Shown in pieces: positions 23,907 to 54,699 of a DNA stretch of 64,000 nt. The DNA is from an uncultured delta proteobacterium (GTDB lineage: Bacteria > Desulfobacterota > Desulfobacteria > Desulfobacterales > UBA11574), in contig CAVZUV010000003.1 of assembly GCA_963778575.1 (NCBI GenBank), positions 17,903 through 81,902 on the forward strand, written 5' to 3'. Under the pieces are notes generated by a model that searched no databases, had not been told where the DNA came from, and saw only the letters and a program-made list of their open reading frames with translations. Both the position numbers and the translations under genes were made by a program. The stretch's first letter is position 1, and each line of letters begins with the position of its first letter.

Positions 23907-25115
23907 GGGAGGGTTTCGAAGATGGGTAAGGAAAAATTTGAGCGGACCAAGCCGCATGTAAACGTGGGTACGATCGGTCATATCGATCACGGGAAGACGA
24001 CATTGACGGCGGCGATTACGAAGCATATGGGCCTGAAGGGGATGGCGAGTTATGTACCGTTTGATCAGATCGACAAGGCGCCGGAGGAGAAGGAGCGGGG
24101 GATAACCATAGCGACGGCGCATGTTGAGTATGAGACGGCGAATCGTCATTATGCGCATGTGGATTGTCCGGGTCATGCGGATTACATCAAGAACATGATT
24201 ACGGGAGCGGCCCAGATGGACGGGGCGATATTGGTGGTTGGCGCCGACGACGGTCCGATGCCCCAGACGCGGGAACACATATTGTTGGCGCGTCAGGTGG
24301 GGGTTCCTCAGATTGTAGTATTTTTAAACAAGTGTGACATGGTGGATGATGAAGAGCTGATAGAGCTTGTTGAGTTGGAGCTTCGGGAATTATTGGACAA
24401 GTATGAGTTTCCGGGGGATGACACGCCGATCATTCGTGGGAGTGCGTTAAAGGCGCTTGAGAGTGATGATGCGGACAGTGCGGAAGCGAAGTGTATATTT
24501 GAGTTATTGGAAGCGGTGGACACGTTTATACCGGAGCCCCAGCGGGATATCGACAAGCCGTTTTTGATGCCGATAGAGGATGTATTCAGCATATCGGGAC
24601 GAGGGACGGTGGTAACGGGTCGCGTTGATCGCGGGGTTATTCATGTCGGAGATGAGATAGAGGTAGTAGGGATACGTCCGACGATGAAGACGGTGTGTAC
24701 CGGGGTAGAGATGTTCAGGAAGCTTTTGGATGAAGGGCGAGCGGGAGACAACATCGGGGTATTGATGCGCGGGACGAAGCGAGACGAAGTTGAGCGTGGT
24801 CAGGTGGTGGCGCAGCCGAAGACGATAGAGCCGCACACGAAGTTCAAGGCGGAGGTATACATATTGAGCAAGGAAGAGGGAGGCCGTCACACGCCGTTTT
24901 TCAACGGGTATCGGCCGCAGTTTTATTTTCGGACGACGGATGTTACGGGGAATTTAACATTACCGGAAGGGGTAGAGATGGTGATGCCCGGTGACAATAT
25001 AACGATTACGGCAGAGTTGATAACGCCCATAGCGATGGAGAAGGAATTGCGGTTTGCCATCCGGGAAGGCGGCCGGACAGTGGGCGCCGGCGTGGTGAGC
25101 GATATTTTAGCGTAA
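23907..25115 (+). repeat. 1209-bp direct repeat, copy 1 (tuf plus 15 nt of RBS region)
   Basis: By-eye comparison shows identity with 38755..39963. The forward and three antisense ORF translations are identical between copies. Identity starts at GGGAGGGTTTCGAAG and ends at the stop codon. Confidence 0.9.
23922..25115 (+). CDS. tuf: Elongation factor Tu (copy downstream of the tRNA cluster, tufB-like position)
   Basis: 397 aa with [22 protein letters not shown] and SAL. The context thr-tyr-gly-thr tRNAs-tuf matches the E. coli tufB operon. Confidence 0.97.
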
Positions 25116-38754: not shown

Positions 38755-39963
38755 GGGAGGGTTTCGAAGATGGGTAAGGAAAAATTTGAGCGGACCAAGC
38801 CGCATGTAAACGTGGGTACGATCGGTCATATCGATCACGGGAAGACGACATTGACGGCGGCGATTACGAAGCATATGGGCCTGAAGGGGATGGCGAGTTA
38901 TGTACCGTTTGATCAGATCGACAAGGCGCCGGAGGAGAAGGAGCGGGGGATAACCATAGCGACGGCGCATGTTGAGTATGAGACGGCGAATCGTCATTAT
39001 GCGCATGTGGATTGTCCGGGTCATGCGGATTACATCAAGAACATGATTACGGGAGCGGCCCAGATGGACGGGGCGATATTGGTGGTTGGCGCCGACGACG
39101 GTCCGATGCCCCAGACGCGGGAACACATATTGTTGGCGCGTCAGGTGGGGGTTCCTCAGATTGTAGTATTTTTAAACAAGTGTGACATGGTGGATGATGA
39201 AGAGCTGATAGAGCTTGTTGAGTTGGAGCTTCGGGAATTATTGGACAAGTATGAGTTTCCGGGGGATGACACGCCGATCATTCGTGGGAGTGCGTTAAAG
39301 GCGCTTGAGAGTGATGATGCGGACAGTGCGGAAGCGAAGTGTATATTTGAGTTATTGGAAGCGGTGGACACGTTTATACCGGAGCCCCAGCGGGATATCG
39401 ACAAGCCGTTTTTGATGCCGATAGAGGATGTATTCAGCATATCGGGACGAGGGACGGTGGTAACGGGTCGCGTTGATCGCGGGGTTATTCATGTCGGAGA
39501 TGAGATAGAGGTAGTAGGGATACGTCCGACGATGAAGACGGTGTGTACCGGGGTAGAGATGTTCAGGAAGCTTTTGGATGAAGGGCGAGCGGGAGACAAC
39601 ATCGGGGTATTGATGCGCGGGACGAAGCGAGACGAAGTTGAGCGTGGTCAGGTGGTGGCGCAGCCGAAGACGATAGAGCCGCACACGAAGTTCAAGGCGG
39701 AGGTATACATATTGAGCAAGGAAGAGGGAGGCCGTCACACGCCGTTTTTCAACGGGTATCGGCCGCAGTTTTATTTTCGGACGACGGATGTTACGGGGAA
39801 TTTAACATTACCGGAAGGGGTAGAGATGGTGATGCCCGGTGACAATATAACGATTACGGCAGAGTTGATAACGCCCATAGCGATGGAGAAGGAATTGCGG
39901 TTTGCCATCCGGGAAGGCGGCCGGACAGTGGGCGCCGGCGTGGTGAGCGATATTTTAGCGTAA
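38755..39963 (+). repeat. 1209-bp direct repeat, copy 2 (tuf plus RBS)
   Basis: Identical to 23907..25115 (see copy 1). Confidence 0.9.
38770..39963 (+). CDS. tuf: Elongation factor Tu (str-operon copy)
   Basis: The protein is 100 percent identical to the copy at 23922..25115. Confidence 0.97.
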
Positions 39964-44127: not shown

Positions 44128-44216
44128 GTCCACACGACGATTGAAAAGACTTTTTAACCATCTGTTAGTTTTTGGTGCTTACCAATACCGCGTTGCCGTA
44201 ATGGAGATTATGGAAG

Positions 44217-49056: not shown

Positions 49057-49497
49057 ATGAAGCTGAATGAATTGTTACCGCCGGAAGGATCACGCAAAGC
49101 CCGAAAACGGGTGGGACGAGGTGTCGGGTCCGGACATGGTAAAACAGCCGGAAGGGGTTCAAAAGGTCATAACAGCCGCAGCGGCGGAGGCGTGAGACCC
49201 GGTTTTGAGGGCGGTCAGATGCCGCTTCAACGGCGCCTGCCCAAACGCGGTTTCACCAATATCTTTAAAAAGAAAATCGTCGTACTTAACATTCGGGACT
49301 TGGCGCGGTTTGAAAGCGGCAGCATCGTGGATGAGGCTGCGTTTGTTCGGATCGGTCTTGTAAAAGGCCGAAGGGACGGCATCAAAATTCTCGGCAAAGG
49401 CGAGATCACGGTTCCGCTTACAGTCAAGGTGAACGGCGCCAGTAAAAACGCCAGAGAAAAGATCCTTGCGGCCGGCGGAAATATAGAGGTTTATTGA
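49057..49497 (+). CDS. rplO: 50S ribosomal protein L15
   Basis: [18 protein letters not shown]. Confidence 0.97.
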
Positions 49498-49498
49498 T

Positions 49499-50815
49499 AT
49501 GATCGGCGGCGGGTTCGGAAATATATTCAAAATACCGGAACTGAAAAAACGGATCCTCTTTACATTGGGGATTGCTTATCGTCTATCGTGTGGGGGTCCA
49601 TGTTCCGACTCCGGGGATAGACGCTGTGGCGCTTGCTTCATTTTTTCACAAGCAAAAGGGACACTTCTCGGTCTTTTTGACATGTTTTCCGGAGGCGCTT
49701 TAGAGAGACTATCCGTTTTTGCTCTCGGAATCATGCCTTATATCAGCGCAGCGATTATACTTGAACTGTTGACGGTGACGATACCGCATCTTGAACGCTT
49801 GTCCAAAGAGGGCGAACAGGGACGGAAAAAAATCACGCAGTATACTCGTTATGGAACGATTCTCTTGAGTGTCATCCAAGGATTCGGCATCAGCGTCGGT
49901 CTTGAACAAATGAGTTCACCCGGAGGGGCACCCGTGGTTATTATCCCGGGATGGGGATTTAGAATCATGACGGTGATCACCTTGACCGCGGGGACGGCAT
50001 TCATCATGTGGCTGGGCGAACAGATTACCGAACGGGGAATCGGCAATGGCATTTCTCTTATCATATTTGCAGGGATTATCGCCCGAATGCCGAACGCCAT
50101 CGGAAATACCTTCCGACTGCTTTCAACCGGCGAGATGGGGACGTTTGCCATACTCATATTGATTGTTCTGATGGTGGCGGTGGTGGCGTTTATTGTATAC
50201 ATGGAACAGGGCCAGCGGCGAATATCGGTTCAATATGCCAAAAGAGTCGTCGGCCGAAAAATGTATGGTGGTCAGAGCACGCATCTGCCGTTAAAGGTTA
50301 ATACATCCGGCGTGATACCACCGATTTTCGCTTCATCTATCATCATGTTTCCCGCAACCATGGCCAGTTTTTTCGCCGTTCCCTGGATGCGATCCGTGGC
50401 TTCAGCCATGAGACCCGGTAATATTGTATATGAATTGTTGTATGTGGGGTTTATTTTCTTTTTCTGCTATTTTTATACTGCGATTACTTTTAATCCGACC
50501 GACGTTGCAGATAATATGAAGAAACAAGGCGGATATATTCCGGGCATCCGTCCGGGTAAGCGAACGGCAGATTATATCGATAGGGTCTTGACCCGTATTA
50601 CCTTGGGCGGCGCCATATATGTTTCTGCAGTATGCGTATTGCCGTCTGTTTTGATGACCAAGTTTAATGTTCCTTTTTATTTTGGCGGGACTGCCCTTTT
50701 AATCGTTGTCGGAGTTGCTATCGATACCATTCAGCAAATAGAATCTCACATGTTGACTCGGCATTACGAAGGATTTTTGAAGAAAGGCAGTGGCAGAACG
50801 AAAGGAAGATTCTAA
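49499..50815 (+). CDS. secY: Preprotein translocase SecY (with ~29 codons read out of the conserved frame near the N-terminus)
   Basis: 438 aa. The conserved SecY sequence runs from [31 protein letters not shown] onward. Residues ~24-53 are non-SecY-like, but the adjacent frame encodes the canonical TM1 (see the secY finding). Confidence 0.9.
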
Positions 50816-50845: not shown

Positions 50846-51064
50846 ATGCCGAAAGAAGAGGCGATTAAAGTTGAAGGCACGGTGCTTGAGACGTTGCCCA
50901 ATGCAATGTTCAAAGTAGAACTCGAGAATAAGCACCAGGTACTCGCACATATTTCCGGGAAAATGCGTATGCATTTTATTAAAATATTGCCCGGAGATAA
51001 AGTTACGGTTGAACTTTCTCCATATGATCTATCTCGCGGAAGAATAACATACCGGTCAAAATAA
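50846..51064 (+). CDS. infA: Translation initiation factor IF-1
   Basis: 72 aa, [32 protein letters not shown]. Confidence 0.97.
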
Positions 51065-54666: not shown

Positions 54667-54699
54667 TCCGGACTGTATAATTACAAAAGATATTTTCTT

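Follow-up and report, generated by a model that had tools for sequence, protein, structure and literature searches.

A compensated pair of single-base indels in secY of a Desulfobacterales assembly, probably a consensus artefact that leaves the reading frame open

Indels are the dominant error of long-read assemblies and cause frameshifts (PMC8021871). Nearby allelic variants that are collapsed into one consensus likewise introduce artefactual indels (PMC8445201). Here we describe two single-base indels of opposite sign in secY, found in a 64,000-nt stretch of DNA (the window) from an uncultured delta proteobacterium (assembly GCA_963778575.1, contig CAVZUV010000003.1). The assembly has 30 contigs and 4.16 Mb, is 95.6% complete with 8.6% contamination or heterogeneity, and looks like a MAG. 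A sequence-only reading of the window had proposed that part of secY is read outside its conserved frame, as the result either of paired homopolymer errors in an essential gene or of a genuine compensated frameshift.

The window contains a typical ribosomal super-operon, with the gene order rpmD-rplO-secY-infA-rpsM-rpsK shared by all conspecific contigs, and secY lies at the end of the spc operon, directly after rplO (Table 1). The genome was searched for a second functional secY, which a genuine frameshift had been thought to require, and the search returned a single copy. The protein as read matches the Pfam SecY family (PF00344) over residues 72-411 (E = 1.1e-122, 409.7 bits, cut-off 32.2), and its TIGR00967 score of 381.4 bits is above the curated cut-off of 253.6. 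However, only residues 1-24 and 51-438 are normal SecY. Residues 25-50, which correspond to TM1 and the start of the first periplasmic loop, share 3 of 26 positions with the conspecific SecY and contain four Cys (none in the canonical segment) and five charged residues (two in the canonical segment). The 19-residue Kyte-Doolittle mean falls from 1.53 in the canonical segment to 0.82. The TIGR00967 alignment begins at residue 51, model position 36, and thus lacks model positions 1-35, which include TM1; that of the conspecific SecY (P0002) begins at residue 16, model position 1, and scores 418.3 bits. By these measures, TM1 is destroyed in the protein as read. The +1 frame of 49572..49646 restores the match, with 24 of 25 residues identical to the conspecific TM1 and loop, and this loss and recovery of SecY similarity is far beyond chance. 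The earlier proposal was therefore right that the stretch is unlike any SecY, that the alternative frame encodes canonical TM1 and the following loop, and that the shifted frame has no stop; its figure of about 29 codons shrinks to 26. Since the wrong frame is stop-free across all 26 codons, the 438-aa ORF stays open and gene callers raise no flag.

Table 1. Features of the secY locus, in window coordinates
Feature	Position	Strand	Description
rplO	49057..49497		directly upstream of secY
secY	49499..50815	+	single open 438-aa frame as assembled; PF00344, TIGR00967 equivalog
First event	49567..49573	+	one extra base in GGGGATT
Out-of-frame stretch of secY	49571..49648	+	26 codons, residues 25-50; +1 frame gives canonical TM1 and following loop
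Second event	49641..49647	+	G absent at 49646/49647, where the T6 run 49641-49646 ends
GGG run	49658..49660	+	uninvolved in frame recovery; identical in conspecifics
Synonymous third-position C>T, codon 80	49738	+	private to the window vs covering conspecific contigs; sister species also T
Synonymous third-position C>T, codon 115	49843	+	private to the window vs covering conspecific contigs
infA	50846..51064		directly downstream of secY

The altered segment is confined to this assembly. A secY match is present in 39 of 41 related genomes, and several relatives gave a second small match, in another frame, to query residues ~17-58, which reads as the signature of the window as the odd one out. 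All 25 relatives that were aligned, from the same genus to the same order, encode canonical TM1 in one frame. The canonical TM1 motif is found in 119 of the 120 best SecY homologues, and the remaining one is the window's own. Among 5.8 billion protein clusters searched, the window SecY forms a singleton (one member, on one contig of 81,994 nt), and the next-best clusters (P0002 to P0005) are 94-95% identical. An exact-match look-up of the protein as read in other assemblies found none besides its own contig.

The most informative comparison is with conspecific populations. The conspecific protein P0002 is identical to the window SecY at 412 of 412 residues outside the shifted stretch and has a canonical TM1. 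Its gene lies on four JGI metagenome contigs, which share 99.44-99.89% identity with the window over 7.8-12.3 kb. Searching with rplO, the neighbour upstream, enlarged this set to 12 distinct contigs, each from a different sample (11 JGI metagenomes and one Logan SRA assembly, SRR10448424), with 99.2-99.9% identity to the window. In all 12 the sequence is GGGGATGCTT...TTTTTTGCACAA, so that both indels are absent. Nucleotide alignment with secY of close relatives, the check suggested at the outset, thus gave the canonical frame in 25 of 25 relatives and 12 of 12 conspecific contigs. Moreover, the bases between the two indels carry zero substitutions relative to these contigs, which indicates that the stretch has spent no time evolving under the new frame. 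The pair is therefore private to one assembly, is missing from near-identical independent assemblies, and shows no divergence of the kind that evolution in the shifted frame would leave.

Aligning the first 240 nt of secY with the 25 relatives placed the two events more precisely. Relative to the 12 conspecific contigs, the first is an additional T at 49572/3 (GGGGATG to GGGGATTG); relative to the sister species, which has GGGATTG (L-G-L-L), it appears as an additional G. The conspecific contigs read TTG GGG ATG CTT (L-G-M-L) at this site and so have the GGGG run as well, and a single T insertion relative to 99.9%-identical conspecifics is the more parsimonious reading. The frame had been proposed to be lost at the GGGG run 49567..49570; the neighbourhood was right, in that the event falls within 49567-49573, and an extra G is seen in comparison with the sister species alone. 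At the second site the window reads TTTTTT^CACAA (assembled form TTTTTTCACAA) where the conspecifics have the canonical TTTTTTGCACAA, and the absent base is a G in 22 of the 25 relatives and an A in the other three. Recovery had been assigned to the GGG run, with the reading SFFHKQKG. It takes place 12 nt upstream of that run, where the true reading is SFFAQAKG, and the events are 75 nt apart rather than about 88. Nor do both sites appear to be G homopolymers, as had been supposed: one is an insertion (AT to ATT) next to a G-run, the other the loss of a G after the T6 run. Only one site is in contact with a G run, and neither event can clearly be called a change in homopolymer length.

These data also bear on programmed recoding, in which the ribosome would shift +1 near GGG-GAT-T and -1 at the T6 run and so produce canonical SecY from the sequence as assembled. 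The T6 run at the second site and the G-run beside the first are in keeping with such a scheme. However, the conspecifics and all relatives encode SecY in one frame without a shift, so neither a shift site nor the out-of-frame arrangement is conserved among them, and the incoming frame at the second site, A TTT TTT, lacks an X XXY YYZ heptamer. To our knowledge, two opposite ribosomal shifts in one essential gene are without precedent. Absence of the indels from the conspecifics already effectively refutes recoding, which has a vanishingly small probability and can be excluded for practical purposes.

If the pair is an error, the same assembly would be expected to contain others. A nucleotide comparison with the sister species (G003; ~64 kb aligned, 88-98% identity) gave no mid-gene frameshift, with non-triplet indels only in intergenic DNA or at gene ends. 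Taken alone, this sample gave no sign of assembly errors and would have misled; proteins of another species (G010) and conspecific contigs were needed. Among 319 orthologous ORFs of G010 (~101,000 aa), at least six are in one frame there and show a frame switch in the window's assembly. Nearly all of these switches come from 1-nt insertions in the latter, seven of which fall in a single 1128-aa TPR gene. Compared with G010, one-base insertions, each with a frame switch in an orthologous ORF, were also seen at C14:125672, C1:116134, C17:557759 and C17:558098.

Comparison with conspecific contigs (two to six per event) identified private gene-breaking indels on three other contigs of the assembly. 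A 7-kb patch at C7:12040-19135 has more than 20 private indels, mostly 1-nt insertions, together with a higher mismatch density. They chop three genes of 1165 aa (TPR/LysM), 231 aa (TPR) and 502 aa, and all three genes are intact, and the indels absent, in three to five independent conspecific contigs. At C8:124675, an additional G private to the assembly (GGG to GGGG) divides a TauE-family gene into parts of 157 and 243 aa. The gene is intact (432 aa) in six conspecific contigs, and its surroundings, 12.7 kb at 99.95% identity to conspecifics, contain no other indel; this comparison shows that the split is an error of the assembly and that the gene is not a pseudogene. At C15:72747-72762, a PMT-family glycosyltransferase (548 aa in conspecifics) is split into 355 and 182 aa by two private 1-nt insertions that fall within 15 nt of each other, and a third at C15:74320 cuts short class II FBP aldolase, which has 431 aa in conspecifics. 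Overall, about 2% of the sampled genes are frame-broken by private 1-nt insertions. Some 85% of the private events are insertions, mostly without a homopolymer length change. Real bacterial mutation has a deletion bias; the insertion excess is the opposite of this and is typical of a noisy-read consensus.

Frame-broken secY is also found among low-contig-count relatives of the family or order, and not in the fragmented short-read-type assemblies. The low-contig-count relative G011 has a frame switch near residue 185 of its secY (C2:82533-83835), and G020 (C1:2807183-2808497) has an extra T within the T-run of GGTCTTTT(T)TGAC, which lies some 40 nt further downstream than the second site of the window. 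In another low-contig-count assembly, G032, secY (C1:2077030-2078139) is either frame-broken or N-terminally unmatched.

Taken together, these results suggest that the secY +1/-1 pair is a consensus or assembly artefact and not a property of the organism, a reading to which we give a probability of roughly 93%. The pair is private to an assembly that carries many other private small indels; we infer that its cause is sequencing or consensus error in a long-read-type assembly, with co-assembled close variants possibly an aggravating factor. The real gene would then read TTG GGG ATG CTT ATC GTC TAT CGT ... TCA TTT TTT GCA CAA GCA AAA GGG, as in all conspecific populations. In the consensus, a base would have been wrongly inserted at 49572/3 (AT to ATT) and the G after the T6 run at 49646 wrongly dropped. 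The organism almost certainly has a normal SecY. Of the two causes originally put forward, paired errors in an essential gene are thus strongly supported, by the private nature of the pair and by the many other private gene-breaking 1-nt indels, and only the homopolymer detail falls away.

The other cause, a genuine compensated frameshift, would leave the strain with a single SecY in which 26 Cys-rich, partly charged residues stand in place of TM1; this SecY would be either tolerated or inactive. Were it real, a relative of sulfate reducers (Desulfobacterales-type MAG names occur among the cluster matches) would have as its only SecY one without TM1. The open frame and the perfectly conserved remainder of the protein are compatible with this. 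So are the two private synonymous SNPs nearby (Table 1), which imply that the sampled strain has a slightly distinct genotype from all 12 comparison contigs, and the clean 34 kb around the gene, in which two independent errors are unlikely. Against it, secY is essential in bacteria and single-copy in this assembly, and both hydropathy and the TIGR00967 alignment indicate that TM1 is lost. The altered form is found in none of the 12 conspecific contigs and none of 119 homologues, the strain shares 99.9% identity with populations whose gene is normal, and the shifted stretch has not changed at a single nucleotide. Many private indels break other genes of the assembly, FBP aldolase among them. 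We therefore regard it as very improbable that the strain has a real compensated frameshift, whether with a TM1-replaced translocon or with reliance on an unrecovered second secY.

A related possibility is that the pair is real and belongs to a second copy of the gene that is decaying, or to a genotype in the minority, with the functional secY in the ~4% of the genome that was not recovered or in co-binned strain DNA. The assembly statistics (95.6% complete, with 8.6% contamination or heterogeneity) leave room for this, and the first site resembles a hybrid of the GGGGATG form and the GGGATTG of the sister species. However, the gene stands in its normal place between rplO and infA, within the one ribosomal super-operon found, and lacks pseudogene-type divergence, and the conspecific contigs have the same locus with a canonical gene and no sign of a duplicate. 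Only a slim chance attaches to this explanation.

The main caveat to the artefact reading is the quality of the surrounding sequence. Against eight conspecific contigs, 23.9-40.0 kb of the window shows zero indels, and the only indels between 39.9 and 57.7 kb are the secY pair and three intergenic 1-nt insertions, so that the pair stands alone in ~34 kb of otherwise clean consensus. Deletions, moreover, are the less common kind of error in this assembly, and that the second event is one of them counts against an artefact. Two independent, opposite errors 75 nt apart, with a stop-free wrong frame between them, are unlikely a priori; a rough estimate from ~1 isolated error per 50 kb outside the C7 patch puts the expected number of compensating pairs at well under one per genome. 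This improbability is reconciled with an artefact by the spatial correlation of errors, as in the C15:72747-72762 pair and the C7 patch, and by selection, in that a scan over very many windows picks out such rare silent pairs. Frame-correction software was considered as the source of the compensating deletion and rejected, because many uncorrected frameshifts remain in the assembly.

Other features of the region were noted in passing. The three intergenic insertions, specific to the window, lie at 44130, just after the rpsC stop, and at 54692 and 54697, in the spacer that follows rplQ. Outgroup comparison is ambiguous, and these insertions may be genuine polymorphisms or additional errors of the consensus. 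The two tuf copies of the window, at 23922..25115 and 38770..39963, are identical at all 1194 nt. A conspecific short-read contig (L099) has the order rpoC-rpsL-rpsG-tuf-secE-nusG-rplK-rplA, which means that it was joined from one tuf copy to the other; the contig shows a repeat-collapse artefact, not a different gene order.

On the artefact reading, the biology of the organism is unaffected by the pair, and its value lies in what it shows about data quality. With compensating indels the frame stays open, the length is right and the family score is high, yet 6% of the SecY residues are wrong, and standard checks for pseudogenes and split genes miss such a pair. The deposited SecY is a singleton in a collection of 15 billion proteins. 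With about one sampled gene in fifty frame-broken, unusual proteins from this assembly need a prior check against the abundant conspecific short-read contigs. The assembly should be flagged for polishing, an instance of a general problem (PMC8021871).

Compared with the canonical bacterial SecY of E. coli (PDB 5abb chain A), the window protein scores 470 bits, and its gene likewise sits in the spc operon position. In the alignment, window residues 25-50 are carried without identities, and the segment is canonical only in the +1 frame.

The first site recalls allele-collapse artefacts (PMC8445201). The conspecific GGGGATG and the GGGATTG of the sister species, two alleles that differ by a local shift of homology, together give exactly GGGGATTG, and consensus collapse of close variants is thus a possible contributor there. 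Unlike such artefacts, the second site has no known allelic difference. At all five SNP positions between the sites (49583, 49590, 49592, 49598 and 49631) the window has the conspecific allele, so a simple two-allele mosaic fails for the pair as a whole. A pure mosaic, which fits site 1, was therefore rejected as the whole explanation.

The closest resemblance is to the indel errors of long-read and hybrid MAGs (PMC8021871). As in those, the window's assembly has a low contig count and a patchy distribution of private single-base coding indels, and it breaks genes that stay intact in short-read assemblies of the same species. The secY pair differs from the usual MAG indel error in one respect: it compensates within 75 nt, without a stop codon, and so escapes the flags raised for split genes and pseudogenes.
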